Positions 11,473-26,556 of a stretch of 27,675 nt of DNA are shown here, piece by piece. The notes beneath the pieces are model-generated. The model was not told the origin of the DNA, made no database searches, and saw only the letters and a list, made by a program, of their open reading frames with translations. The DNA is from an uncultured bacterium (GTDB lineage: Bacteria > Patescibacteriota > Minisyncoccia > Phycocordibacterales > UBA2100): positions 1 to 27,675 of the forward strand of contig CBIMKN010000001.1 of the NCBI GenBank assembly GCA_966244515.1, in the 5' to 3' direction. The first letter of the stretch is position 1. Every line of letters begins with the position of its first letter. Position numbers and translations under genes: made by a program.

Positions 11473-11979
11473 ATGAATGGAGCGAAAGTCGTCGCTGTCG
11501 CCGCGATCGGCAAGAACAGGGAATTGGGAAAGGGCAACGAATTGCTCTGGCACATCCCCGCAGACCTCAAGCGGTTCAAGGAGCTCACGGCGGGCCACCC
11601 GATCGTGCTCGGCCGCAAAACATTTGAATCCATCGTCGGCTATTTGGGTAAGCCGCTGCCGGGGCGGCAGAACATCGTTGTGACGCGCGACAGCAATTGG
11701 TCGTACGAGGGTGTCCTCGTCGCTGCCTCGGTCGAAGAAGCGATCGCGAAAGGTAAGGAATTGGATGGAGAACAGGTCTCGATCGGCGGCGGGGCGCAGA
11801 TATATCAGGCGGCGCTCCCGTACACCGATGAACTCCGCCTCACCGTGATCGACGATAGCAAGGAGGCGGACTCATTCTTTCCTCCGTATGAACAAGAGTT
11901 CACAAAAGTCTTGGGCGAAGAGTCGCGCGAACACGACGGTCTGCGGTATCGGTGGGTGGATTTGGCGAGGGGAGAGTGA
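11473..11979 (+). CDS. folA: Dihydrofolate reductase
   Basis: AIGKNRELG, LLWHIPADLKRFK, LGRKTFES, PLPGRQNIV, IGGGAQIY, DSFFP. Confidence 0.97.
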   Translation: MNGAKVVAVAAIGKNRELGKGNELLWHIPADLKRFKELTAGHPIVLGRKTFESIVGYLGKPLPGRQNIVVTRDSNWSYEGVLVAASVEEAIAKGKELDGEQVSIGGGAQIYQAALPYTDELRLTVIDDSKEADSFFPPYEQEFTKVLGEESREHDGLRYRWVDLARGE

Positions 11980-11996: not shown

Positions 11997-14957
11997 ATGG
12001 CTAGGCGGATCACGGTAGCGGCTACGACAGACGATGCGCGAGCCGCCGGGTACCTGCGCACTCTCCGCTCGCTCTATCCGAAATCCCGCCTCAAGGCAGT
12101 TTCCGTAGCGGCGGCGTACACGACCGACGCGAAGCTCTCCAAAAGCGAGCTTGAATCGTTCGCCAAGCGGCTCAGCAACCCGCTGATCGAGCGCTACTCC
12201 ACCGTTGCCGTCATTGCTCCGAGATCATTCACCGCCGCGATCGAGATCGGCTTTCATCCGGGCGTGACCGACAACGTGGGCAAGACCGCGAAACAGGCGC
12301 TTGAGGACATGCTCGGCCGCTCGCTTACGAAGGACGAGGATGTGTACTCGTCCGTTTTCATGTTCCTCGCTGGACCGAGCGTACGGGATGCAGCGGCAAT
12401 GGCGAGGGAGCTGCACAATCCGCTCATCGAGCGCGCGTCGATCTACTCCGCGAGCGATGCAAAGAAGGGATTCCCCATTGTCGTGCCGAAGGTGCACCTG
12501 CACGAGAGCGTCTCTGCGGATACGGTCGATCTCGACGTGAGCGACGATGAGCTTGCGCGCATCGGCAAAGAGGGCATTGCGAACGCGGATGGCACGCGCC
12601 GCGGCCCGCTCGCACTCTCGCTAAGAGCGATGAAGGTTATCCAGGCGCACTATAAGAAGCTGAAGCGCAACCCGACCGATATAGAGCTCGAATCGCTCGC
12701 GCAGACCTGGTCGGAACACTGCAAGCATTCGATTTTTGCTGATCCCATCGATGAGGTGAAAGAGGGGATCTACCGCCGCTACATCAAAGGAGCGACGAAG
12801 AAGATACGAGCGGAGAAGGGAAAAAAAGATTTCTGCGTATCCGTCTTTACCGACAATGCGGGCGGCATCGTCTTCGATGATGAGTACCTCGTTACGCATA
12901 AGGTGGAGACCCACAATTCTCCGTCGGCGCTTGATCCGTTTGGCGGCGCGATCACGGGCATTGTCGGCGTGAATCGCGACGCGCTCGGCTTCGGTCTCGG
13001 AGCGAAACCGATCGCCAATGTGTATGGCTTCTGCGTCGCAGACCCGCGCGATACGTCGCCAATCTATCGCGATGCAAAAAAGGAGCAGCCGCTCTTGCCA
13101 GCGAGGAGGATCCTTGAGGGCGTCGTGAAGGGCGTGAACCATGGCGGCAACCAGAGCGGCATACCGACGCCGCTTGGCTTTGTCGCGACAGACCCGCGCT
13201 ATCGCGGCAAGCCGCTCGTCTTCGCGGGCACCGTGGGTCTGATCCCGCGAAAAGAAGGAAAAAGGGATCTCGCACAAAAGAAAGCGCGCCCGGGAGATTA
13301 CATCGTGATGGCAGGAGGCCGCGTCGGCCTCGACGGCATCCATGGGGCGACATTTTCATCGGAAGCGCTCGCAAGCGGCTCTCCGGCCACGGCGGTGCAG
13401 ATCGGCGATCCGATCACGCAGAAGAAAATGTCGGATGCGATTGTGCGAGAGGCGCGTGAGCGTGATCTTTACAGCAGCATCACCGACAACGGGGCGGGCG
13501 GGCTTTCGTGCTCGGTCGCTGAAATGGCGAAAGAGTGCGGCGGCGCCGTCGTGTCGCTCGAAAAGGTGCCGCTCAAATATCCCGGCCTCTCTCCGTGGCA
13601 GATATGGATCTCCGAATCGCAGGAGCGCATGACGCTCTCCGTGCCGAAGAAGAAATGGAAGGAGCTGAAGAAGCTTTTCGATCGCCACGATGTAGAGGCG
13701 AGCGTGATCGGCGAGTTCACCGGCTCCAAGAGCTGTGTCGTGAAATACAAAGGCAAGACGATCATGGATATGCAGATGGATTTTCTACACGATGGCCGTC
13801 CCGTAGAGATCCAGAAGACCAAGAAGCCCGTGTATACGAACACAGAGCCGCCAAAGAAACTCCGCGCGATCGAGCCGCAGAAGGCGCTCCTCAGTCTTCT
13901 CTCGAGGCCCAATATCGGCAGCATTTCGTTCATATCGGAGCAGTACGATCACGAAGTGCAGGGCACGTCGGTGACGAAGCCGCTCCAGGGTCGCGGCAGA
14001 GTCAATGCTGACGCCGGGGTGATCCAGCCGCTGCCGCACTCCCCAAAGGGCGTCGTACTTAGTCACGGGTATTTCCCGTGGTATTCCGATATCGACACCA
14101 ATGCAATGGCCGCCGCATCGATAGACACTGCAGTACGAAACGCCGTATGCGCTGGCGCTTCGCTCAAGCATCTCGCCATCCTCGACAATTTCTGCTGGTC
14201 GTCATCGAACACTCCTGAGCGGCTCTATGAGCTCAAGCACGCCGCTGAAGCCGTGTACGACATCGCTGTCGCATACGGCACGCCGTACATCTCCGGCAAG
14301 GACAGCATGTTCAACGATTTCCGCGGGTGGAATGCAAGGGGTGAAAAGATTCATATTGCAGCACCACCCACGCTCCTTATCTCGGCGATCGGTGTCATCG
14401 AAGATGCGTCTCGCGCAACGACACTCGATTTCAAGGCTGAGGGCGACCGCATCTACCTGATCGGAGACACGAATGACGAGCTCGGCGCATCGGAATACTT
14501 CGGAATGCTCTCGTCGTCCGCAAAAAAAGCATACGTCGGCTCGCGCGTGCCTCGCACTGATGTAAAGAAGAATGCTCGTGCGTACCGCGCGCTCGAGATA
14601 GCGATGCATAGCGGCGCGGTCGTCTCCGCACTCTCGGTCGGACGCGGCGGTCTTGGCGTCGCGCTCGCCAAATCCGCCATCGCCGGTCAGATCGGCGCTA
14701 TGATCGATCTCACGAAACTTCCAGGCGACGCACAGCATGCCGACTCCGTACTCTTCTCTGAGAGCCAGGGCCGCATCCTCGTTAGCGTCCGCGCCGGAGA
14801 GGAAGAGAAGTTTGAGAAAGCCATGCGGGGGACCGTCTGCACGCGGATCGGTACCGTGCGCGGACGCGACCTGTCGGTCATAGCTGGCAGAGGGACGCTC
14901 AATACGAGCATAGAGAAGCTCACCGCCGCATATCGCACACCTTTCAAAAATTGGTAA
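11997..14957 (+). CDS. purL: FGAM synthase synthetase subunit with PurS-like N-terminal extension
   Basis: QTWSEHCKH, KVETHNSPS..DPFGGA, DNGAGGL, SESQERM, QYDHEV, ISGKDS, FSESQGR; N-terminal PGVTDNVG. Start set to ATG 11997 (986 aa). Confidence 0.95.
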   Translation: MARRITVAATTDDARAAGYLRTLRSLYPKSRLKAVSVAAAYTTDAKLSKSELESFAKRLSNPLIERYSTVAVIAPRSFTAAIEIGFHPGVTDNVGKTAKQALEDMLGRSLTKDEDVYSSVFMFLAGPSVRDAAAMARELHNPLIERASIYSASDAKKGFPIVVPKVHLHESVSADTVDLDVSDDELARIGKEGIANADGTRRGPLALSLRAMKVIQAHYKKLKRNPTDIELESLAQTWSEHCKHSIFADPIDEVKEGIYRRYIKGATKKIRAEKGKKDFCVSVFTDNAGGIVFDDEYLVTHKVETHNSPSALDPFGGAITGIVGVNRDALGFGLGAKPIANVYGFCVADPRDTSPIYRDAKKEQPLLPARRILEGVVKGVNHGGNQSGIPTPLGFVATDPRYRGKPLVFAGTVGLIPRKEGKRDLAQKKARPGDYIVMAGGRVGLDGIHGATFSSEALASGSPATAVQIGDPITQKKMSDAIVREARERDLYSSITDNGAGGLSCSVAEMAKECGGAVVSLEKVPLKYPGLSPWQIWISESQERMTLSVPKKKWKELKKLFDRHDVEASVIGEFTGSKSCVVKYKGKTIMDMQMDFLHDGRPVEIQKTKKPVYTNTEPPKKLRAIEPQKALLSLLSRPNIGSISFISEQYDHEVQGTSVTKPLQGRGRVNADAGVIQPLPHSPKGVVLSHGYFPWYSDIDTNAMAAASIDTAVRNAVCAGASLKHLAILDNFCWSSSNTPERLYELKHAAEAVYDIAVAYGTPYISGKDSMFNDFRGWNARGEKIHIAAPPTLLISAIGVIEDASRATTLDFKAEGDRIYLIGDTNDELGASEYFGMLSSSAKKAYVGSRVPRTDVKKNARAYRALEIAMHSGAVVSALSVGRGGLGVALAKSAIAGQIGAMIDLTKLPGDAQHADSVLFSESQGRILVSVRAGEEEKFEKAMRGTVCTRIGTVRGRDLSVIAGRGTLNTSIEKLTAAYRTPFKNW

Positions 14958-14961
14958 ACAT

Positions 14962-15732
14962 ATGTCAAAACCGCGCGTCATCATATTTTCCGGATACGGA
15001 CTCAACTGCGAGGCAGAGACGCAGGCGGCTTTCGAGCGCGCGGGGGCAAGCGCTCGGATCGTCCATATCAACGATCTCATCGCGAAGCCTGCCCTGCTTA
15101 AAGACGCCGAGATCATCGCATTCCCTGGCGGGTTTTCGTACGGCGACGACACAGGATCCGGTAAAGCATATGCGAATCGCATCAAGGAGCACCTATCGGA
15201 GCAGCTCGACGCCTTCCTTGAGCGCGACACGCTCGCGATCGGCATCTGCAACGGCTTCCAGATCATGACGAGCGCAGGGCTGTTGCCGGGAGCGCTCATC
15301 GCCAACGATTCGGGACGATTCATCACGCGGTGGGTGGATCTCAAAGTCGAGAACAATAGCCCGTGGCTCATGGGTATCGAATCGCTCTCGCTGCCGATCG
15401 CGCACGGAGAGGGGAAGTACTATGCAGACGCCTCGACCCTCGCTGCGCTGAAAGTGGATAGGGCCGTAGCGCTGACATACGAGCGCGGGCCCATCTGCGA
15501 ACACTTCGACCTACCGGGGAATCCCAACGGCGCGCTCGAGGATATCGCGGGCGTGACCGCGCGGGATGGCCGCGTATTCGGCCTCATGCCGCACCCGGAG
15601 CGGGCCGTGCGCTTCACCCAGCTGCCGCACTGGACGTACGAGAAGGAGAAATACATACGCGAAGGGCTGCCGACGCCCGACGAAGGCCCGGGTATTCGGA
15701 TATTTCAGAACGCCGTGCGGTACTTTGCATAA
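14962..15732 (+). CDS. purQ: FGAM synthase glutaminase subunit
   Basis: GLNCEAET, PGGFSYGDD, GICNGFQ, PIAHGEG, NPNG, MPHPER (Cys-His-Glu triad). Confidence 0.96.
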   Translation: MSKPRVIIFSGYGLNCEAETQAAFERAGASARIVHINDLIAKPALLKDAEIIAFPGGFSYGDDTGSGKAYANRIKEHLSEQLDAFLERDTLAIGICNGFQIMTSAGLLPGALIANDSGRFITRWVDLKVENNSPWLMGIESLSLPIAHGEGKYYADASTLAALKVDRAVALTYERGPICEHFDLPGNPNGALEDIAGVTARDGRVFGLMPHPERAVRFTQLPHWTYEKEKYIREGLPTPDEGPGIRIFQNAVRYFA

Positions 15733-15789
15733 ATCGTGCAGGTGATACGCTGCCGCTAGGTCCGGCATACGAAACCGAGGGAGGGAACA

Positions 15790-16623
15790 ATGCGGACAAC
15801 GCTGTTGAATGCCCATCTCGCGGCATTCGATTTTGACAAGACGATCGCGAGAACGTTCGAGCCGAGCCCCAAAGGCATCGGCGTGAATGAGGCCTACGAA
15901 CTCGCGCTTCAGAAGCTCTTCGGCCCCAAGGGGCTGATGCAGTCGGTCGGGGGGCTCAGGAATCGGGCCCCGACGGAACTCGTGCAGGATATTCTGGATG
16001 TGCATCCGAGTCTTCTGGCGCGAGGCATGCTGACCTACGAGCGTGAGTACGAGCGCCTGAAGTCGCTGATGCCCCGCGGCAAGGGCATTCCGCTCGTCCC
16101 GCTTCGCGTAGGCGACGTGGTGGAGCTCATCGGAGAAGTGCTCGTGCGGCTCAAGCTCGAGATACTCCTCAATGAGATCAGTCCGGTGTGGCCGCGGCCG
16201 TACGAGGGCGTCCTGGAGTTCATGGACGACCTGCATCAGCGCGACAAGGCGACGGCCATCATCAGCTCGGGACACGATCCGTTCATCCGCAGGTGCTTCG
16301 ATGTCTGGGGCGCAGCGTGCCCGCGCATCTTGCTCACCGACGATGATCTGAGGCCGCGTCCCGACCCGATCGTGAAGAAGACGAAGCCATCGAGGGTCTT
16401 GATCGACTACGTCATCATGATGGCGTTCATGTCGGGCAGGACAATCACGTCGAAAGACATCGTGTATTTCGGCGACGACATCGATAAGGACGGCGGCCTT
16501 GCGGCGAATGCGGACGTACCGTTCGGGCACTTTTGTCCGGAGGCGACAGAGCCGCATCCGCGGCTCGGGAAAGACGCCTTCTGGCTCAGGTCCTGGCATG
16601 AAGCGCGCAGTGCGCTTCACTAG
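15790..16623 (+). CDS. HAD superfamily hydrolase (C1-cap type), putative phosphatase/nucleotidase
   Basis: Motif I FDFDKT, motif II ISSG, motif III KTKP, motif IV FGDDIDKD; SD ggagg upstream. Confidence 0.75.
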   Translation: MRTTLLNAHLAAFDFDKTIARTFEPSPKGIGVNEAYELALQKLFGPKGLMQSVGGLRNRAPTELVQDILDVHPSLLARGMLTYEREYERLKSLMPRGKGIPLVPLRVGDVVELIGEVLVRLKLEILLNEISPVWPRPYEGVLEFMDDLHQRDKATAIISSGHDPFIRRCFDVWGAACPRILLTDDDLRPRPDPIVKKTKPSRVLIDYVIMMAFMSGRTITSKDIVYFGDDIDKDGGLAANADVPFGHFCPEATEPHPRLGKDAFWLRSWHEARSALH

Positions 16624-16634
16624 AACAAGTGGTG

Positions 16635-16667
16635 TGAAGGGGCGGCGACGCCCCTTCATTATTTTTT
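16635..16667 (+). terminator. Intrinsic terminator after the HAD gene
   Basis: tgaaggggcg-gcga-cgccccttca, a 10-bp perfect stem followed by ttatttttt. Confidence 0.8.
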
Positions 16668-16675
16668 GATACTAT
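16667..16675 (+). promoter_or_regulatory. Extended -10 (TGaTACTAT) restarting the operon at the first AAA_28 gene
   Basis: 7 nt before ATG 16683, directly after the terminator U tract. Confidence 0.6.
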
Positions 16676-16682
16676 GCAGCGC

Positions 16683-17219
16683 ATGACGCCCCCGTGGTAC
16701 GTGCTTACTGGCGCTCCCTCATCGGGGAAATCGACGCTGCTCGGCGAGATCGCGAGGGCAGGCTACATGACGCAGATCGAGGCAGCGCGTCATGTGATAG
16801 AGCGTGAGATCGCGAAAGGTAGAGATCTGCTCGAACTGCGACAGCGAGATGCAGCAGCCTTCCAGCATGAGGTGCTGCAGTTGAAGCTTGAGTGGGAGGC
16901 GGAGCTGCCTCGCGATCAGATCGTTTTTTTCGATAGAGGCATACCGGATAGCGTCGCGTACTATCGGCATGAGGGCATTCCCGAGGACGAATTCCTTTCG
17001 AAAGCCATCGCGCGCGCGCAATATCGCCGCGTATTCGTGCTCGACCTAATATCGCGTGAGAATTTTATCCTCGATGGGGCTCGTTCAGAGACGTGGGAGG
17101 GCGCACAAGAACTCGACAGGCTTCTTGAGGCAGCGTACCGAGAGCTCGGCTATGATGTCATGCGTGTGCCCGCGCTCCCTCTTTCGGAGCGCGCGGACTT
17201 TATACTGAACAATCTTTGA
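16683..17219 (+). CDS. P-loop NTPase/kinase, AAA_28 (NadR-like) family, paralog 1
   Basis: VLTGAPSSGKST Walker A, FFDRG, ARSET. ATG 16683 is preferred over 16674, which overlaps the -10 box. Confidence 0.82.
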   Translation: MTPPWYVLTGAPSSGKSTLLGEIARAGYMTQIEAARHVIEREIAKGRDLLELRQRDAAAFQHEVLQLKLEWEAELPRDQIVFFDRGIPDSVAYYRHEGIPEDEFLSKAIARAQYRRVFVLDLISRENFILDGARSETWEGAQELDRLLEAAYRELGYDVMRVPALPLSERADFILNNL

Positions 17220-17220
17220 T

Positions 17221-17754
17221 ATGGACACTTCATCATCGCCGCCGTGGTACGTGCTCACCGGAGGTCCTTGTGCCGGCAAGACTACGACGATCGACGAGCT
17301 CGCGAAGCGCGGGCATCCTGTGCTTGCGGAACCCGCGCGGCTCATCATCGATGAAAAGCTCGCGGCAGGACACACCATAGAAGCGATCGTGACCGACCCC
17401 GATTGGCTCCCGTCGGTCACGCGACGCGCTTTCGCGCAGGAGCGCATGGTACCGAAGGAGACTCTTTTCTTTTTCGATCGCGCGCTGCCGGACAGCCTCG
17501 CATACTATCGGCTTGCTCAGAGACCCGTTGATGATTTCTTCGCTCACGCCCTGAGCGAGTCGAGTTATCGAAAGATCTTTTTGCTCGACCTTGTGGATTT
17601 TGTAAATGACGAGGCGCGAAGCGAGACACCGGAGCAGGCAATGATGATCCATGGGCAGATCCGCGAAGCATATGTGGACCAAGGATACGAGATCGTCGAA
17701 GTACCGGTGATGCCTGTCTCAGAGCGCGCGGACTTCATTCTCGAGCGGCTATGA
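17221..17754 (+). CDS. P-loop NTPase/kinase, AAA_28 family, paralog 2
   Basis: VLTGGPCAGKTT Walker A, FFDRA, ARSET; ATGA overlap with purK. Confidence 0.82.
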   Translation: MDTSSSPPWYVLTGGPCAGKTTTIDELAKRGHPVLAEPARLIIDEKLAAGHTIEAIVTDPDWLPSVTRRAFAQERMVPKETLFFFDRALPDSLAYYRLAQRPVDDFFAHALSESSYRKIFLLDLVDFVNDEARSETPEQAMMIHGQIREAYVDQGYEIVEVPVMPVSERADFILERL

Positions 17755-18839
17755 AGACCATCGGGATTGCAGGCGGCGGACAGCTCGGCAGGATGCTTGC
17801 TGATGCGGCCCACGCGCTCGGATTTCGCGTGGTGACGCTCGACCCAGTGCAGGGCGGTCCGGCAGCGCAGGTGGCGGATGAGGAGATCGTCGGCGACTAC
17901 AAAGAGCACGACCTCATGCGGCTCCTTGCCACAAAGTCCGATGTCGTGACGTTCGAAGTTGAATCGGTCAATGCGGAGGCGCTTAAGGAGATCGCGGCCG
18001 AAGGGAGGCCGGTACACCCGACACCGCACACGCTCGCGATCATCAAGGACAAACTTGCGCAGAAGCGATACCTTGCGGAGCGAGAGATACCTGTCGCACC
18101 GTTCGCTGAGGAGCACGAGGCGCCGTCGCTCGGTTACCCATACATACTGAAGGCGCGCTCCGGCGGCTTCGACGGCAGGGGCAACGCGCTCGTCGCATCC
18201 GAGGCGGATCTTCCTGCCGCAAAGGAGAAGCTCAAGGGTGCGCCCGCGTACGCTGAAGGATTTGTCAGGTTTGAGAAAGAACTCGCCGTCGTTGCAGCTC
18301 GAACCGAATCCGGCGACATGCGCATATTTCCGCTCGTCGAGACTGTCCACCGCAACCACATCTGCCACATGGTGCTCTGTCCAGCACCGGTGCCAGATGA
18401 CATCGCGAAAAAAGCACACGCGCTCGCAGAAAAGGTGCTTGCTGCTTTTGAGGGTGCAGGCGTATTCGCAGTCGAGATGTTCCTCTCGGATGAAGAGGTA
18501 TTGGTGAATGAGGTCGCGCCACGCGTGCACAACAGCGGACACCTCACGATCGAAGCGACGGAATCATCGCAATTCGAACAGCATATCCGTGCAATCGCAG
18601 GACTGCCGCTCTCTAGCGCCGAGATGAAGGTCCCTGCCGCGTGCATGATAAACATCCTCGGGGAGCGCGATGGGAAGGCCGAGTCAAAAGGCGTACCGGA
18701 GGCGGAGCAAATTGCCGGTGTGAAAGTTCATATATACGGTAAGATGGAAACGCGCCGAGAGCGAAAGATGGGTCACATCACCGCGGTCGCTGATTCACTC
18801 GACGAGGCAAAAGAAAAGGCACTTCGCGCTGAATCATGA
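17751..18839 (+). CDS. purK: N5-carboxyaminoimidazole ribonucleotide synthase
   Basis: [48 protein letters not shown]. Confidence 0.96.
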
Positions 18840-18865
18840 CGCAAGACGGCGTGGACAATTTCAAT

Positions 18866-19381
18866 ATGATACAAGCCGGCATCATCATGGGTTCTGATTC
18901 AGATCTTTCGGTGATGCAGGATGCCGCGAACATGCTCAAGGAGCTCGGCGTCGAACATGAAGTGACGATCGTTTCTGCGCATCGTACGCCCGACAGGCTC
19001 GTCGAGTATGCGAAATCGGCAGAGGAACGCGGCATCAAAGTGATCATTGCGGGCGCAGGCGGCGCTGCGCACCTGCCAGGCATGATAGCCGCATTCACAC
19101 ACCTTCCCGTGATCGGTGTGCCGATCCTGAGCAAGTCGATGAAGGGGATCGATTCGCTCCTCTCTATCGCTCAGATGCCGCCAGGAATTCCCGTCGCGAC
19201 GGTCGCCATCAATGGTGCAAAAAATGCCGGACTCCTTGCCGCGCAGATCATCGCGACGGCGGACCAGGCAGTGCGCGAAAAGCTTCTCGCTTTCAGGAAG
19301 ACACAAGAATCGAGCGTACTCGAAAAGGCGTCAAAACTCGAACACATAGGATACGAGTCATATCTTAAGGACCATGAGTAA
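18866..19381 (+). CDS. purE: N5-CAIR mutase (class I PurE)
   Basis: [47 protein letters not shown]. Alternative start 18836 (ATGA overlap with purK). Confidence 0.96.
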
Positions 19382-20492
19382 GAGCGCCTATGCACAAGCG
19401 GGGGTGGACTATACGAAGCTCGAGCCATTTAAGCACGCGATGATCGCAGCCGGGAGAAAGACGCTGACATTCCCCAATAGGCGAGATGTGTACATCAACA
19501 GCGATGTGCTCCACTCGCACGGCGGCGTTTTCGAGTATCGCGGTTCGAAGCCTCACATGTGGTGCAACACGCAAGAAGGGCTCGGCAATAAGAACTGGAT
19601 CGCTGAGTGGATGTACCAGAACGACGGCACGGGCCGGACGCATTACGAAAAGATCGCCGTCGATAATGCCCTCATGGCGGTCAACGACGTGATCGCGCAA
19701 GGCGCCATGCCTGTCGTGTACACGGACGAAGTCGCGGCCGGCGATTCTGAATGGTTTGCTGACGAGAAGCGGGCGGCGGACCTTGCGGCGGGATTTCTGA
19801 GCGTATGCGAGGAGGCAGGTATGGCCCTGCCAGCTGGGGAGTCTCCGGCACTGAAGTACCTCATCAAGGCAGAGCCGCCGGTGAAGAGCGCGCCGTCGCT
19901 CTCTGGCTGCGTCACGGCGATCATCGCGCCCAAGGAGCGCCTCATTACTGGGACGAATCTCACGCCTGGCGACAGCATCATCGGCGTTACCTCCAGCGGC
20001 ATACATGCGAATGGTATTTCACTCGTCATAAAAAAGGCACTTGAACTTAAAGATCAATTCCTCACGAAGCTCGAGAATGGCAATACGCTCGGTGAGGAGG
20101 CGCTCATTCCGACGCGCTCATACGTAAAGCTTATCGAGACGCTGCAGGACAATGCGATAGACATCCATGCGCTCCTTCCCGGTACGGGAAGCGGCGTTAG
20201 TAAGATCGCGTTCGATTCGAGACCGGCTACGTACCGCATCCATGCATGGGGCGCAGTGCCGCCGCTCTTTACGTTCATGCGCGAGATCGGTGTCTCTCTG
20301 GAGGACTGCCTCAAGACATTTAACTGGGGCATGGGGTACTACATATTTCTTCCGAAAACGGAAGTTGAGCGCGCGATATCGCTTGGTACGGCGGGGGGGT
20401 ATCAGCTCATGGAGATAGGACGCGTCGAGGAGGGTGAGCGTCAGGTGATATTCGAGCCCGAGAACATTACCCTAGCGCCTCCGGGCGAATAA
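19374..20492 (+). CDS. purM: AIR synthase (FGAM cyclo-ligase), divergent
   Basis: [50 protein letters not shown]; located between purE and purC. Confidence 0.82.
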
Positions 20493-20500
20493 CTCATTGT

Positions 20501-21436
20501 ATGACCGATGTGCTCAAAGAAACGCAGCTTGATTTTCTCAGCAAGAAATATATCGGGAAAGTGCGCGACGTATATGACATGGGCGACAGGCTCGCGCTCG
20601 TGACGACCGACCGGCACTCGTCGTTCGACCGCATCATTGCGCACGTCCCGCACAAGGGACAGGTGCTCAATCAGATCAGCGCGTGGTGGTGCGAGCAGAC
20701 GAAAGATATAATCCCAAATCACGTGATCTCAGTGCCGGATCCCAATGTGACGATCGGGAAGAAGTGCAATCCGATACAGGTGGAAGCTGTCGTGCGCGGT
20801 TACATGACGGGCGTCACTGACACCTCGCTCTGGACGCATTACCAGAAGGGCAAGCGCGACTTCGGTAATTTCCGCTTGCAGGACGGGATGAAGAAGAATC
20901 AAAGACTGCTTCGTCCTGTATTTACGCCTTCCACAAAACAAGACACTCACGATAGGACGCTCTCACCGCAAGAACTTGTGAACGAGGGCATCGTGTCGCG
21001 TGCCACGATCGATCAGCTCGAAGCTGCGGCGATCGCACTCTATACGCGCGGCGCGGAGATCGCGGCCTCAAGGGGGCTCATACTCGTCGATACGAAGTAC
21101 GAGTTTGGCCTGGACGCGAACGGCTCCATGACGCTTATCGACGAGATACATACGCCCGATTCCTCGCGCTACTGGCAGCTCGACACGTACCAAGAACGCT
21201 ACGATAAAGGGGAGGAACCGGAGTACTTCGATAAGGAATTCCTGAGACTGTGGTTCAAGGAGCATAGCGATCCGTACAAGGATGCTGTGCTGCCTGAGGC
21301 TCCGTCGGAGCTTGTGGAGGAGCTTTCACGCAGGTATATTCGCATGTATGAACAGATCACGGGGGAGACGTTCAAGCCAGGCGAAGAGCCGATCGCCCCG
21401 CGCATCGAAAAGAACCTCCGTGCCGCTAGCCTTTGA
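20501..21436 (+). CDS. purC: SAICAR synthetase
   Basis: GKVRDVY, TDRHSSFD, VVRGY, FTPSTK, LVDTKYEFG, IDEIHTPDSSRYW, DKEFLR. Confidence 0.96.
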   Translation: MTDVLKETQLDFLSKKYIGKVRDVYDMGDRLALVTTDRHSSFDRIIAHVPHKGQVLNQISAWWCEQTKDIIPNHVISVPDPNVTIGKKCNPIQVEAVVRGYMTGVTDTSLWTHYQKGKRDFGNFRLQDGMKKNQRLLRPVFTPSTKQDTHDRTLSPQELVNEGIVSRATIDQLEAAAIALYTRGAEIAASRGLILVDTKYEFGLDANGSMTLIDEIHTPDSSRYWQLDTYQERYDKGEEPEYFDKEFLRLWFKEHSDPYKDAVLPEAPSELVEELSRRYIRMYEQITGETFKPGEEPIAPRIEKNLRAASL

Positions 21437-22877
21437 CGCGCTTACTGCGGTAAGCTCCATCGACGGCCGGTACCGGAGCACCGCCGACGCGCTCGCGCCG
21501 CACATGAGCGAGTATGCGCTCCAGCGTGCACGGCTTTTCGTGGAGTGCGAGTACCTCATCGCGCTCTCCAAGGTCCCGAAGCTCGGCATGCGGAAGCTCT
21601 CTCTGCGCGAGATATCACTCTTGAGGGCGCTGCCCGAGATCACGCTCGAAGAATCGCGCGTCATCAAAGCGATCGAACGGGAAGGGTATGCTGGCATACC
21701 GGCTACGAATCATGACGTAAAGGCGATCGAGTATTTCATCAAACAAAGACTCGAGGGCACGAGCCTCGCTGATGTGCTCGAATGGACTCATTTCGCGCTC
21801 ACCTCTGAAGACGTTAACAGTGTCGCCCACGCGATATGCCTTCGCGACGCGCTCGAAGAAGTGATCCTCCCCACACTCTCAGAGGTGGCAGGATCGTTCG
21901 GCGTATTGGCGAAATCGCATGCCAAAACAAGCATGCTCGCGCGCACGCACGGACAGAGCGCTTCACCGACTACATTTGGTAAAGAAATAAACGTGTTTCT
22001 CGTACGCCTCAAGAGGCAGATTTCATACCTTGAGACGAATCCGATCCTGGCCAAGTGGGGCGGCGCTACTGGCAACTACAATGCGCATACCGCCGCAGCG
22101 CCTCAGGTGGATTGGGTGTCGTTCGCTCGGAAATTCATAGCAGGACTTACTGTGACCGCACAAGGAAAGAAGAGGGGGATACGGCTCGTCCTCAATGAGG
22201 TCACGACGCAGATCGAACCGCACGATACATATGCGGAGCTTTTTGATGCGCTTCGCCGTATCAATACGATTCTTATCGATGCGTCGCAGGATATGTGGCG
22301 ATACATCAGCGATGGGTGGGTGACGCAGAGACCCAAAGCGGGGGAGATCGGCTCAAGCGCGATGCCCCACAAGGTCAATCCGATAGACTTTGAGAATGCT
22401 GAGGGCAATCTCGGTGTGGCAAACGCGCTCTTCGAACACTTCTCTCGCAAGCTCCCCATCTCGCGCCTGCAGCGCGACCTCTCAGACTCGACAGTGGAGC
22501 GAGTATTTGGCACAGCATTCGCGCACACGCTCATAGGGTACAGATCGCTCCTGCGCGGCTTCGGAAAGATCGATGTAAACAAAGCGGCCATGCTCGAGGC
22601 ACTGCGCTCCCACCCTGAAGTCATCGCCGAGGCGCTACAGACCGTGCTCAGAAAAGAAGGCGTGGCGGTACCGTACGAGAAGCTCAAGGAACTTACGCGA
22701 GGCCGCAGTGTCACGATGGAGGACTTCGCGAAATTCATCGATTCGCTCGACATTGCGCCATCGATCAAGCGCCGTTTGAAAGCAATCAGGCCTGAGAATT
22801 ATATTGGCATTGCGGCTATGCTTGCTCGTGCTGACGGAGGGTTCACCCCGTTAGATAGACGCGAGCGACGCGCCTAG
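21420..22877 (+). CDS. purB: Adenylosuccinate lyase
   Basis: SSIDGRY, TNHDVKA, TSEDVN, ARTHGQ, GGATGN, GSSAMPHKVNPIDFENAEGN, SRLQRDLSDS. Probable GTG start at 21420 (485 aa). Confidence 0.96.
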   Translation: MPLAFDALTAVSSIDGRYRSTADALAPHMSEYALQRARLFVECEYLIALSKVPKLGMRKLSLREISLLRALPEITLEESRVIKAIEREGYAGIPATNHDVKAIEYFIKQRLEGTSLADVLEWTHFALTSEDVNSVAHAICLRDALEEVILPTLSEVAGSFGVLAKSHAKTSMLARTHGQSASPTTFGKEINVFLVRLKRQISYLETNPILAKWGGATGNYNAHTAAAPQVDWVSFARKFIAGLTVTAQGKKRGIRLVLNEVTTQIEPHDTYAELFDALRRINTILIDASQDMWRYISDGWVTQRPKAGEIGSSAMPHKVNPIDFENAEGNLGVANALFEHFSRKLPISRLQRDLSDSTVERVFGTAFAHTLIGYRSLLRGFGKIDVNKAAMLEALRSHPEVIAEALQTVLRKEGVAVPYEKLKELTRGRSVTMEDFAKFIDSLDIAPSIKRRLKAIRPENYIGIAAMLARADGGFTPLDRRERRA

Positions 22878-23067
22878 TGCAAAAAGCGAAGGTTCAAGTG
22901 GGGATCGTGTGGCTTGCGGGAGACGGTATCTAACGGGGTTCATGAAGTAAGCGGACTCCTGCCGACGCGTCTCAAAAGAACAAAGGTCGAGCGTTATTCG
23001 TGCGAAAGCCCTTTTCGATCGTTCGGGAAGTCGACGCCCCGGATGAATGGGTCTATCGCGTGCAATG

Positions 23068-23097
23068 AAAAGGACCGGACGCATGTCCGGCCTTTTT
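23068..23097. terminator. Bidirectional intrinsic terminator
   Basis: aaaagg-a-ccggac-gcat-gtccgg-c-cttttt, with A and T tracts on both sides, between convergent transcription units. Confidence 0.75.
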
Positions 23098-23113
23098 CTG
23101 TGTGCATCAACGC

Positions 23114-23896
23114 TTACTGCTTAAGTCCGAGACCAGTGCGGATCAAGTACATATTGATCGTGATGAGCGCGGCAATGAGCGCGACGAGGACGAGCACTGA
23201 TGTGCTGATCGCAATATCGCTGATGCCGAGAAAGCCGTACCTGAATCCATTGATGAGGTAGAAGAGCGGATTGGCGTAGGTGATGCTGGCCCACCACGTC
23301 GGCAACGTGTGCACGGAATAGAAAATGCCTCCCAAGTACACGAGCGGCGTCAGCACGAATGTGGGCACGATGTTGATGCCATCGATCGATTTCGCATAGA
23401 CGCCATTGACGAGGCCGGCGAGCGCGAAGACGATCGCGGTGAGGATCGCGAATCCCAAGATAATCAGCCCGCTGTGGACCGAGAGGTGCAGGCCCGTAAA
23501 GAAGAGCGAAACGAGCATGACGAGAGCACCCACGAGTACGCCGCGTATGACGCCGCCTGCCACGAACCCAGAGATAATGAGCCACGGCGGCATAGGGGAC
23601 ACGAGCATTTCATCGATAGAGCGAGCGAAGAATTTCGATTGGAAGAATGTGAACGAAGAGTTCGCGTAGGCGCTCGTGACTATGGCGAGCATGACGAGGC
23701 CCGGGACCACGAACTGCATGTAATCGACGCCCTGCATGCTCCCGATCCTCGAGCCGAGCACCGTGCCGAATACGGCGAAGTAGAGTACTGAGGTAACGAC
23801 GCTCGGGAGGAATGTCTGCGCCCAGATGCGGAAGATGCGCATCACGTCCTTGCGCACCATCGTATAGAAAGCTGTCCATTTGGCTGATGAGGGCAT
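23114..23896 (-). CDS. ABC-2 type transporter permease (YadH-like)
   Basis: QTFLPSVVTSVLYF, YMQFVVPG, LVSP, LTPLVYLGGIFYS, NPLFYLINGFRYG; about six TM segments. Confidence 0.9.
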   Translation of the reverse strand: MPSSAKWTAFYTMVRKDVMRIFRIWAQTFLPSVVTSVLYFAVFGTVLGSRIGSMQGVDYMQFVVPGLVMLAIVTSAYANSSFTFFQSKFFARSIDEMLVSPMPPWLIISGFVAGGVIRGVLVGALVMLVSLFFTGLHLSVHSGLIILGFAILTAIVFALAGLVNGVYAKSIDGINIVPTFVLTPLVYLGGIFYSVHTLPTWWASITYANPLFYLINGFRYGFLGISDIAISTSVLVLVALIAALITINMYLIRTGLGLKQ

Positions 23897-23897
23897 A

Positions 23898-24659
23898 TTA
23901 TTTTTCGTGAATGAGCTTGAGGAATACTTCTTCCAGCTTGCTGCCGCGGTAGCCCTCCTTGGCTTCGCCGGCCTCAGTGTGCATGGCGAGCATCTCGTCC
24001 ATGCTGGTGTTCGCGACTATCTGGCCCTTGTTGATGATGGCGACGTGTTTGGCGAGCTGTTCTGCCTCTTCGAGGTAGTGCGTCGTAAGAAGGATGGTAA
24101 GTCCTTCCGAGGTGAGTTTCTTGAGGTAGTCCCACATGCCGCGGCGGAGCTCCACGTCGACGCCGGCAGTCGGTTCATCGAGGATGAGGAATTTGGGCCT
24201 GTGCACGAGCGCTCTCGCGATCATCAGGCGGCGCTTCATGCCGCCTGAGAGCTGCATGCCTGAGCCGTACATTTTGTCGCCAAGACCGAGGTCGTGAAGA
24301 AGCTCCTGGGCGCGCGGAAGCGCAACGCTGCGCGGGATGCCGTAGTAGCCGGCCTGGTTGACGACAATGTCGATCGGCTTCTCGAAGGGATTGAAATTGA
24401 TCTCCTGACCGACCAGTCCGATGAAGGTCTTTGCGACCTCCGGCTCCTTGTCGGTGTCGTGGCCGAAAACCTCGATTGTGCCGCTCGTCTTGTTGACGAG
24501 GCCAGTCGCAATGCCGATGATCGTCGTTTTACCGGCTCCGTTGGGGCCGAGGAGGGCAAAAAAGTCGCCTTCGGGGATCTCGAGCGAGACGCCTTTGAGC
24601 GCCTGCGTTCCGTTGCTGTACGTCTTGGTGACGTTCTTGATTGTGAGGGCGTGTGGCAT
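23898..24659 (-). CDS. ABC transporter ATP-binding protein (YadG-like)
   Basis: GPNGAGKTT, LSGGMKRR, ILDEPTAGVD, LTTHYLEEA. Confidence 0.93.
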   Translation of the reverse strand: MPHALTIKNVTKTYSNGTQALKGVSLEIPEGDFFALLGPNGAGKTTIIGIATGLVNKTSGTIEVFGHDTDKEPEVAKTFIGLVGQEINFNPFEKPIDIVVNQAGYYGIPRSVALPRAQELLHDLGLGDKMYGSGMQLSGGMKRRLMIARALVHRPKFLILDEPTAGVDVELRRGMWDYLKKLTSEGLTILLTTHYLEEAEQLAKHVAIINKGQIVANTSMDEMLAMHTEAGEAKEGYRGSKLEEVFLKLIHEK

Positions 24660-24665
24660 AGGGTG

Positions 24666-25397
24666 CTACGATAGCATTTCTTTAATGAAGGAAAAAGTAT
24701 CATCGGGACCGGTGACCGACCTCGTCGGTATGACGCCCACGACCGTTTCGTCATTGCCGCCGGGGAAGAGGGCGTCGCCCATGTACAGGCACTCGTCTTT
24801 ATTCCAGCCGAGCGCGTCGATAAATGCCGCGACGTTGAAGCCTTTGTTCTTGCCGTATTCGAAAAAATCGAGCACTGTCGTGCCGCCGCTGCGAACTTCG
24901 ACATTGGCTCGCTTGAGCTCGTCTACATCGTCGGCAAAGTCTTCAAGAATCCCGAGGCGGATCCTGTGGTCGGGATCGAACGCGTTCTTTCTCGCCGGTT
25001 CCTCGTGGTGGCCTATGAGCGAATACGCGATTTGCGAATCGCGATCGTCGATAATGTCGTTCTCATCGCGGACTTGATAGTTCAAGTGGGCGCGCACTTT
25101 GTCTGTGAATCGGAGAATGGCGTCCTTCTGATCTTGCGAGAGCGAGCGCTTCCACAGTACACGCCCTTCCTTGGTTTCGGCGAAATTGCCATTCTGTCCC
25201 AGGATGTGGTACATGCCTGCGACGGCGGGCGTCAGATGTTCGCGGATGTCCTTCTCGCCATGGCCCGAGACAACGATCACATCGGCTGTTTCGCAGAGGC
25301 TCTTCAGTATCGGCGCGTGCTCGGGCAAGATGAGCGCCTTGCTTGGCGTCAGCGTGTTGTCGAGGTCGAAGAAGAAATGTTTAGGCTTCGATGTCAT
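24666..25397 (-). CDS. Second HAD-IIB PMM-like hydrolase
   Basis: FFFDLDNTL, VVSG, DRDSQIAYSLIG, GGTTVLD...NK, YMGDALFPGGND. Start set to ATG 25397 (243 aa). Confidence 0.85.
   Translation of the reverse strand: MTSKPKHFFFDLDNTLTPSKALILPEHAPILKSLCETADVIVVSGHGEKDIREHLTPAVAGMYHILGQNGNFAETKEGRVLWKRSLSQDQKDAILRFTDKVRAHLNYQVRDENDIIDDRDSQIAYSLIGHHEEPARKNAFDPDHRIRLGILEDFADDVDELKRANVEVRSGGTTVLDFFEYGKNKGFNVAAFIDALGWNKDECLYMGDALFPGGNDETVVGVIPTRSVTGPDDTFSFIKEMLS
24668..24676 (-). promoter_or_regulatory. Extended -10 (TGcTATCGT) for the ABC ATPase, within the last codons of the HAD gene
   Basis: 8 nt before ATG 24659. Confidence 0.5.
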
Positions 25398-25914
25398 GCA
25401 GTGTGAGGCCGTCGATGTAGTCGGATTTGCCGATGGCGAGGCCGTTATTACGAAGGATGGCATATGCCGTGACTACGTGGAAGTAGAAGTTCGGCATAAG
25501 GTACTCGCGCGCATAATCGCCGGCCGTCAGGTACTTGCCCGGGTAATAGTGGAGCGTGACCTTGCGCTCCTCCTGACCCGCGACGTCTTCAGGGCGAATC
25601 GAGTCGAGGAACGTCACTGTCTTTGCGAGCCGCTCCTTTAATTCAGCGAACGTTTTCTCGTTGTCTTCAAACGATGGAGCCTCGATGCCCGCGAGCCTGG
25701 CGGCACCGCCTTTCGCGTTGTCAGATACTCGCTGTACCTGCATCACGAGCGGGAACTGGTCAAATGTGAGACGCATATTCAGCAGGGCGCTCTCATAATT
25801 GTGGCGCTCGGTGCGCTTCGATTCGGCGAGTGCCGCTGCTTTATCGAGAATCTTATCAAGTGCGATGATGCGCTTTCTCATGGCTGGTATGGTCGATGTA
25901 TAGAGGTCGGACAT
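25381..25914 (-). CDS. DUF1993 family protein (DinB-like fold)
   Basis: RL..DQFPL..QV, ARLAG.E.P...DNE, PNFYFHVVTAYAILR..G..IGKSDY. Confidence 0.85.
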   Translation of the reverse strand: MSDLYTSTIPAMRKRIIALDKILDKAAALAESKRTERHNYESALLNMRLTFDQFPLVMQVQRVSDNAKGGAARLAGIEAPSFEDNEKTFAELKERLAKTVTFLDSIRPEDVAGQEERKVTLHYYPGKYLTAGDYAREYLMPNFYFHVVTAYAILRNNGLAIGKSDYIDGLTLHDIEA

Positions 25915-25974
25915 ATACGTAGGTGAATTGATAGAGCCGCAGTGTAAACAGGCTTTCCAAAACGGCGTTGTGGA

Positions 25975-26556
25975 TTACTCGGCTGCCCGCTTTTCCCAGT
26001 ATGAGGCGGAGGCGCTTACGTACTCTGCGACTCGGCGTTCTGCCGCCGCCGCAAGCTTCGTGACCAACTTCTCGCGGTCTGCTTCGGGTGAACCGGCAGT
26101 CAGCCATGCTTCGAGCGCGTCAATCTGCGCGACGCTTGAGAGCGTGATTCGGCGGCCTTTTGCGGCGGCCCTCAGGAGCGTGGGACCGCCAATGTCAGTC
26201 TTCTCGAGTACATCATGGCTCGTTGAGAGGGGATTGGCGATCGTCTCCTCAAGCGGATAGAGAGTTACGAATACGAGGCCGACAGGTTGCACGCCAATTC
26301 TATCGAGCTCGTCAAAATCCTCTTTCGTGACCGCAAGGAGTGAAGCGTACACTTTGCGCGCAAGCGTCACCACTCGGTGCCCCAGGATCGGGGGTCCGAC
26401 TATGTCTCCGACGTCGCGACATGCAATGCCGTTCTCGCTGAGAAACTTCGCTGTGCCAGCTGAGCCCGTAAGAGACCAGCCGTACTGAGTGAGTAGCTGA
26501 GCGAGTCGGAGCAGGGGTGCATCTTTGCCATATGAAGCGAGCAGTGCGGTTTTCAT
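25975..26556 (-). CDS. Stand-alone PurH N-terminal IMP cyclohydrolase (MGS-like) domain
   Basis: Colinear with the PurH N-domain: GSAGTAKFL, RVVTL, TLYPL, DIGGPTLLRAAAK; stops at 193 aa with no AICAR transformylase domain. Confidence 0.82.
   Translation of the reverse strand: MKTALLASYGKDAPLLRLAQLLTQYGWSLTGSAGTAKFLSENGIACRDVGDIVGPPILGHRVVTLARKVYASLLAVTKEDFDELDRIGVQPVGLVFVTLYPLEETIANPLSTSHDVLEKTDIGGPTLLRAAAKGRRITLSSVAQIDALEAWLTAGSPEADREKLVTKLAAAAERRVAEYVSASASYWEKRAAE

Follow-up and report, generated by a model that had tools for sequence, protein, structure and literature searches.

The window analysed here is a 27,675-nucleotide stretch (27.7 kb; contig CBIMKN010000001.1 of assembly GCA_966244515.1, C1 below) from an uncultured bacterium of the candidate phyla radiation (CPR), and the system in question is its operon for de novo purine synthesis. 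Genes were called from an open reading frame (ORF) listing together with Pfam and NCBIfam profile scans. As an earlier note made from the sequence alone had recorded, the window carries purL, purQ, purM, purK, purE, purC, purB and an inosine monophosphate (IMP) cyclohydrolase domain, and contains no purF, purD, purN, purT, purP, folD or gene for the transformylase that acts on aminoimidazole carboxamide ribonucleotide (AICAR). These presences and absences are a gene inventory, to which no chance expectation applies. We consider it very probable (about 0.9) that the window represents the core section of an ordinary de novo purine pathway, which is complete in this CPR genome and whose other genes are scattered over further contigs. 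The gap that had drawn attention to this locus is an effect of viewing a single window.

The plus-strand operon follows folA (Table 1), and 5' of this folA-pur block lie glyA, thyA, dcd and a CYTH gene. PurL, PurK, PurE, PurC and PurB exceed the equivalog cut-offs of their families, and PurQ lies just below its own. PurL, for which an alternative GTG start exists at 11952, contains FGAR-AT_linker, AIRS and AIRS_C domains with an N-terminal extension and linker, and no glutaminase domain; its residues 95-163 give a weak PurS-like match (21.1 bits, cut-off 22.2), and its relatives can be aligned across about 1000 aa. The start of purB is likely the GTG at 21420; the longest ORF begins at 21282, and the profile match sets in at residue 52 of that longer ORF. 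Convergent with the operon is a minus-strand block comprising a stand-alone IMP cyclohydrolase gene (purJ), a DUF1993 gene, a HAD-IIB gene and an ABC-2 exporter pair, with a histidine kinase beyond.

Family searches of the whole genome (772,942 bp in 101 contigs, 90.3% complete, 0.14% estimated contamination) recovered intact purF, purD, purT, AICAR transformylase and folD genes, all on contigs other than C1. These genes, like the other pathway genes outside the window, are uninterrupted ORFs of normal length and expected domain architecture. Among the explanations offered by the earlier note, the one in which the missing genes lie elsewhere is the correct one. Synthesis from phosphoribosyl pyrophosphate (PRPP) to IMP, AMP and GMP is therefore fully encoded. 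Since every step is present in the genome, the unknown gap-filling enzymes, imported intermediates and riboside route shared with a host that the note had also considered are not required. PurN was not found above cut-off anywhere in the genome, and the sole Formyl_trans_N ORF (on C52) is Fmt-like. The IMP dehydrogenase on C46 is a 375-aa ORF without the CBS subdomain, leaving profile positions 83-213 unmatched.

Table 1. Genes of the purine locus in the window (C1) and pathway genes on other contigs of the same genome.
Gene	Position or contig	Strand	Profile support and remarks
folA (dihydrofolate reductase)	11473-11979	+	PF00186 155.7 bits; directly 5' of purL
purL (FGAM synthase large subunit)	11997-14957	+	TIGR01736 531.8 bits, cut-off 525.75
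purQ (FGAM synthase glutaminase subunit)	14962-15732	+	GATase_5 255 bits; TIGR01737 177.2, cut-off 177.8
HAD-superfamily gene	15790-16623	+	weak HAD_2 and HAD-IB matches
AAA_28 P-loop gene a	16674-17219	+	PF13521 122.6 bits, cut-off 27; partner of HAD gene
AAA_28 P-loop gene b	17221-17754	+	PF13521 112.1 bits, cut-off 27
purK (N5-CAIR synthase)	17751-18839	+	TIGR01161 402 bits, cut-off 318
purE (class I N5-CAIR mutase)	18836-19381	+	TIGR01162 222 bits, cut-off 150; motif GGAAHLPG
purM (AIR synthase, divergent subfamily)	19374-20492	+	TIGR00878 155 bits, full length, cut-off 236
purC (SAICAR synthase)	20501-21436	+	NF009251 419 bits, cut-off 371
purB (adenylosuccinate lyase)	about 21420-22877	+	NF006764 589 bits
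ABC-2 permease	23114-23896	-	exporter pair with ATPase; NF011648 335 bits and ABC_tran for the pair
ABC-2 ATPase	23898-24659	-	exporter pair with permease
HAD-IIB (Cof/PMM-like) hydrolase	24666-25463	-	TIGR01484 66 bits; same block as cyclohydrolase
DUF1993 protein	25381-25914	-	PF09351 170.8 bits; same block
purJ (stand-alone IMP cyclohydrolase, 193 aa)	25975-26556	-	PurH profile positions 1-190
purF	C30		448 bits, cut-off 350; 496-aa ORF
purD	C2		515 bits, cut-off 288; GARS_N, GARS_A, GARS_C domains
purT	C10		568 bits, cut-off 502; PurT_C domain
purV (AICAR transformylase)	C84		Pfam 332 bits; NF002049 452, cut-off 402; PurH positions 199-510
folD	C6		125 bits; both domains
purA	C69		above cut-off; short, 353 aa
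prs	C33		352 bits
guaB (IMP dehydrogenase, no CBS domain)	C46		full length, below equivalog cut-off
guaA	C33		full length, below equivalog cut-off

From these families we propose the following route. Prs would supply PRPP, which PurF and PurD would convert to glycinamide ribonucleotide (GAR), and PurT would formylate GAR with formate and ATP in a folate-free step. The window would then take over: PurL with PurQ may form formylglycinamidine ribonucleotide (FGAM), PurM aminoimidazole ribonucleotide (AIR), PurK with class I PurE carboxyaminoimidazole ribonucleotide (CAIR), and PurC with PurB, by way of the succinylated intermediate SAICAR, AICAR. The stand-alone transformylase PurV on C84 would yield formyl-AICAR, using 10-formyl-tetrahydrofolate made through GlyA from the window and FolD from C6, with FolA also encoded in the window, and PurJ would close the ring to IMP. 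PurA and PurB would lead on to AMP, and GuaB and GuaA to GMP. The earlier note was right that GlyA, FolA and ThyA alone do not yield 10-formyl-tetrahydrofolate, for which FolD is the predicted source. It also named PurN as an enzyme that needs this cofactor; the GAR step here would fall to PurT and formate instead of folate. Neighbouring organisms of the community, or minor reactions inside the cell, may supply the formate. Three genes inside the operon, the HAD gene and both AAA_28 genes, would be accessory passengers that fill no gap in this route.

We followed the pathway in 24 congeneric species, in 16 sibling families of the order and, across the phylum, in 300 further genomes sampled evenly (handles beginning with G denote genomes and those with L loci). 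Among the congeners, purC occurs in 24/24, purD and the AICAR transformylase each in 21/24 and purT in 12/24, including genomes assembled in only 5-10 contigs. The 16 sibling families gave a single, weak purC match and never purD, the AICAR transformylase or purT. Across the phylum sample purC is present in 65/300 genomes (22%), a count that includes the unpublished genome G194 and becomes 64/299 without it. That de novo purine genes would be notable in a CPR genome, as the earlier note remarked, thus holds insofar as they are a minority trait, but the trait has already been published (PMC11608272): a complete PRPP-to-IMP module was reported in 32% of 399 groundwater CPR metagenome-assembled genomes (MAGs). 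Our counts are similar to such published values. Under a stricter criterion that combines purines and pyrimidines, de novo nucleotide synthesis was found in 7% of the phylum (bioRxiv 10.64898/2026.06.21.733656), and some papers describe the CPR as being without complete pathways (PMC7786006, PMC8407418).

Within the genus the pathway is not uniform. Half of the congeners (G001, G002, G008, G016 and eight others) are without PurT, and none has PurN above cut-off. In G002, G008 and G016 the step may be served by a second Formyl_trans_N ORF, which is divergent and 235-299 aa long. G001, which is 99% complete, has neither PurT nor such a second ORF, so that some relatives may truly lack GAR formylation. 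In G012, G023, G018 and G007 (loci L022, L025, L026 and L027) no pur operon lies between folA and the ABC-2 exporter, and G013, G018 and G023 are without purD and the AICAR transformylase. Because of these two observations, a recent loss of the pathway in some congeners is suggested.

The genus has two forms of the operon. That of the window includes AAA_28, purK, a class I-type purE and the divergent PurM; the other has neither purK nor AAA_28, and its canonical PurM is 25-29% identical to the PurM of the window. The divergent PurM is the sole PurM homologue in the genome, occupies the operon slot that canonical purM holds in congeners, and shares 67-87% identity with homologues inside the operons of many Patescibacteria. 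Homologues in the same identity range also appear in MAGs labelled Aminicenantes, Acidobacteriota and Eubacteriales. The minus-strand block (IMP cyclohydrolase, DUF1993, HAD-IIB, ABC-2 ATPase, ABC-2 permease) recurs genus-wide, with DUF1993 or HAD-IIB absent from some loci.

The last two steps to IMP are assigned to the halves of a split PurH. The halves are complementary, the window ORF covering profile positions 1-190 and the C84 ORF positions 195-511. Both end in clean stop codons, and PF01808 is matched only once in the genome, which therefore has no fused purH. PurJ matches residues 12-196 of human ATIC, and the transformylase retains the catalytic Lys-His pair (VIVKHMNPCG) and a C-terminal RHFRH. 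In 17 congeners the transformylase is likewise an intact stand-alone ORF, 324-351 aa long, and two more matches (G003, G007) are cut at contig ends. Stand-alone IMP cyclohydrolases are present in 12 relatives (187-236 aa, 61-71% identity). Because the split is conserved in relatives, it is not an artefact of assembly or frameshift. Two congeners, G019 and G020, have a fused PurH of canonical type (513-548 aa) that is 50-52% identical to the C84 protein. Such separate proteins have precedents: a split PurH has already been described in about 5% of bacteria, Hunter et al. 2019 (PMC6797443) showed in vitro activity, and complementation of E. coli, for the naturally unfused PurH2 AF1811 of Archaeoglobus fulgidus, and ForH, a 216-aa stand-alone homologue, has a solved structure (6nko).

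Of the genes inserted between purQ and purK, the HAD gene encodes a protein with a large cap whose motifs DFDKT and GDDIDKD, read from the translation, are intact; a sequence search of the PDB returned nothing significant for it. The two AAA_28 proteins are 42% identical to each other, and b represents the type common in the genus. AAA_28a has a weak sequence match to the riboside-kinase domain of NadR (PDB 9x6f, E 0.005). The AlphaFold model of AAA_28b (pLDDT 93) superposes best, in Foldseek, on the same NadR domain (TMq 0.72-0.79, root-mean-square deviation 2.7-3.9 Å), and it matches thymidylate and deoxynucleoside kinases at E about 1e-6 to 1e-5. Like the ribosylnicotinamide kinase domain of NadR (PDB 6gye, 8x7f), these proteins belong to PF13521 and have a P-loop of the GxxSSGKS/T type. 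Unlike NadR, they stand alone at 177-181 aa with no NMNAT or HTH domain, their identity to it is 13-18%, and matches to thymidylate and deoxynucleoside kinases have similar E-values. The term kinases that the earlier note used for the embedded genes agrees with this predicted nucleoside/nucleotide-kinase fold, which would be equally compatible with nucleoside or deoxynucleoside monophosphate kinases; phosphorylation of ribosides is putative.

The distribution of the AAA_28 family does not link it to the purine pathway. With the a copy as query, the family is detected in 10/24 congeners and is thus absent from 14/24 that have purC, and it occurs in genomes negative for purC (G183, G093, G045). 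At the four loci without a pur operon mentioned above, AAA_28b still stands directly after folA. On these grounds we rejected a tie to the pathway. Neighbourhoods of AAA_28 outside pur operons were uninformative, and a contig scan with AAA_28a alone gave no confirmed relative. We also considered AAA_28b as a replacement thymidylate kinase, an idea based on the order thyA-folA-AAA_28b in some congeners and on the thymidylate kinases that lead the Foldseek list by E-value. This candidate was rejected as well: a canonical tmk is present on C60 and in 20/24 congeners, with no relation to AAA_28.

Homologues of the HAD gene occupy the same position only in G003 and at the distant CPR loci L057, L058, L065 and L073. 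The HAD gene and AAA_28a together form a sporadic cassette between purQ and purK, seen in the window, in one congener (G003) and in a few distant CPR operons at 35-44% identity (loci L018, L058, L065 and L073). Because they are patchy among relatives, because AAA_28 is found without purC and because b is kept without the operon, the HAD and two AAA_28 genes are accessory. One could imagine that the HAD and AAA_28 pair of CPR purine operons forms a riboside/ribotide shunt, for example for re-phosphorylation of AICA-riboside, AIR-riboside or inosine, together with a dedicated nucleotidase; the kinase fold, the intact HAD motifs and the recurrence of the pair at the purQ-purK junction of several distant CPR lineages are the reasons for raising it, and we regard it as a doubtful proposal. 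Its role could be to buffer toxic intermediates or to bring scavenged ribosides into a pathway that is otherwise complete.

The pathway genes are present and intact, fall into the expected families and are conserved among relatives. A few points nevertheless weigh against a complete, working pathway. The enzyme activities are those predicted from family membership, the PurM of the window scores below the TIGR00878 equivalog cut-off, and PurJ reads RVVTL where human ATIC has RVKTL, the conserved Lys66 being replaced by Val. Genome searches for a source of the formate used by PurT detected no pyruvate formate-lyase and no formate-tetrahydrofolate ligase. Finally, in a bin of 101 contigs at 90% completeness, the linkage between contigs is deduced rather than seen. 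If the substitution in PurJ were inactivating, its product would not carry out the last step, and ring closure would be spontaneous or due to an unknown enzyme; Lys66 of human ATIC is indeed a conserved active-site residue that moves upon ligand binding (PMC9525906). However, RVVTL is shared by all 12 aligned stand-alone orthologues and by the fused, full-length PurH of L059, L067, L068, L075 and L126, from Patescibacteria with complete operons, and is therefore a feature of the clade and not a sign of decay. PurJ retains the Tyr, Asp and Lys residues of LYP, DIGG and AAK, respectively. The motifs TLYP, DIGGPT and AAK are intact in PurJ and its stand-alone orthologues, with close variants in the fused forms, a pattern that suggests selection on a working enzyme. 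We hold an inactive PurJ to be quite improbable; RVVTL marks a CPR clade of PurH, a form that this genus has divided into two genes.

The fragmentation of the bin raises a different concern, namely that a different organism is the source of the contigs with purF, purD, purT, purV and folD, and that the genome is truly purine-incomplete. The bin is made of 101 short contigs, and C84 measures only 3.4 kb. Yet purD shares C2 with the gene for ribosomal protein S3, which is 86-93% identical to proteins named Parcubacteria, Paceibacterota, Minisyncoccota or Kaiserbacteria; GC content is 0.55-0.58 on every pathway contig and about 0.58 in the window; and the estimated contamination is low. Stand-alone orthologues of the C84 transformylase in congeners share 65-75% identity with it and synteny of the upstream genes, and congeners in 5-10 contigs carry the same genes. 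Given the linkage of purD to the S3 gene, the matching GC, the synteny of C84 and the same genes in congeners, such a binning artefact is very unlikely. Less credible still is a truncated pathway fed by import, as proposed in the earlier note, in which FGAR- or AICA-type ribosides of a host would be taken up and phosphorylated by the embedded kinases. The window taken alone, with its missing entry and formylation genes, the riboside/nucleotide-kinase fold of the AAA_28 proteins and the HAD phosphatase genes inside and beside the operon would suit this scenario. It conflicts with the intact copies of each missing gene elsewhere in the genome and their conservation in congeners, as well as with kinases that are lacking in many congeners that keep the pathway and are also present in genomes without purC. 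Since all steps are encoded, no host-shared or imported-intermediate pathway is required, and a complete pathway divided over several contigs is the reading that we retain.

The genome belongs to the Patescibacteria: it is small (772,942 bp at 90.3% completeness), and its S3 protein is nearest to named CPR sequences. Public class labels conflict, as the nearest contigs in the PurM search are titled Saccharibacteria, Kaiserbacteria or Parcubacteria, and L053-L055 are deposited as uncultured Candidatus Saccharibacteria, at odds with the names of the S3 relatives.

Host dependence cannot be read from a pathway that seems gapped in one window when the CPR genome is fragmented, and in this case a check of the whole genome restores every step. 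The locus also documents a whole CPR genus that would be purine-prototrophic while the sampled sibling families are not, which helps to tell ultra-small bacteria that have to obtain nucleotides as parasites from those that do not. Both the split PurH and purine prototrophy in the CPR have been described before. Four points are modest biochemical questions and do not point to a new system: the kinase and phosphatase genes of the accessory set, the divergence of PurM, the Lys-to-Val change in the cyclohydrolase and the origin of the formate. Some novelty attaches only to what the accessory HAD and AAA_28 genes do.

Compared with the bacterial pathway of the E. coli/B. subtilis type, the one encoded here has the same reaction steps and the same enzyme families, with separate PurL and PurQ, PurT, and PurK with class I PurE, and its purLQ-KEMCB core is clustered as in many bacterial pur operons. 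It differs in that the genes lie in one operon plus at least six further loci, that PurS is part of a PurL of 986-1001 aa and not a separate gene, and that PurN is missing, PurH is split, PurM is divergent and three accessory genes lie inside the operon. Other CPR genomes with a complete purine module (PMC11608272; bioRxiv 10.64898/2026.06.21.733656) likewise are small genomes of fermentative type that keep the route from PRPP to IMP, and similar operons of the order purL-purQ-...-purE-purM-purC-purB occur in MAGs labelled Parcubacteria, Doudnabacteria, Liptonbacteria, Harrisonbacteria and others. In contrast to these, the trait here is genus-wide, yet found in at most 1/16 sibling families of the order. 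The closest parallel for the final steps is the purV/purJ pair, named by Cruz et al. 2019, which replaces purH in 44 surveyed bacterial genomes (PMC6486802). As in those genomes, the transformylase and cyclohydrolase genes are separate and no fused purH is present; only purJ has other pur genes nearby, and in that survey a purJ close to pur genes and a purV away from them are both common. The survey included no CPR genomes, whereas the split seen here derives from a CPR-type PurH with the RVVTL motif.

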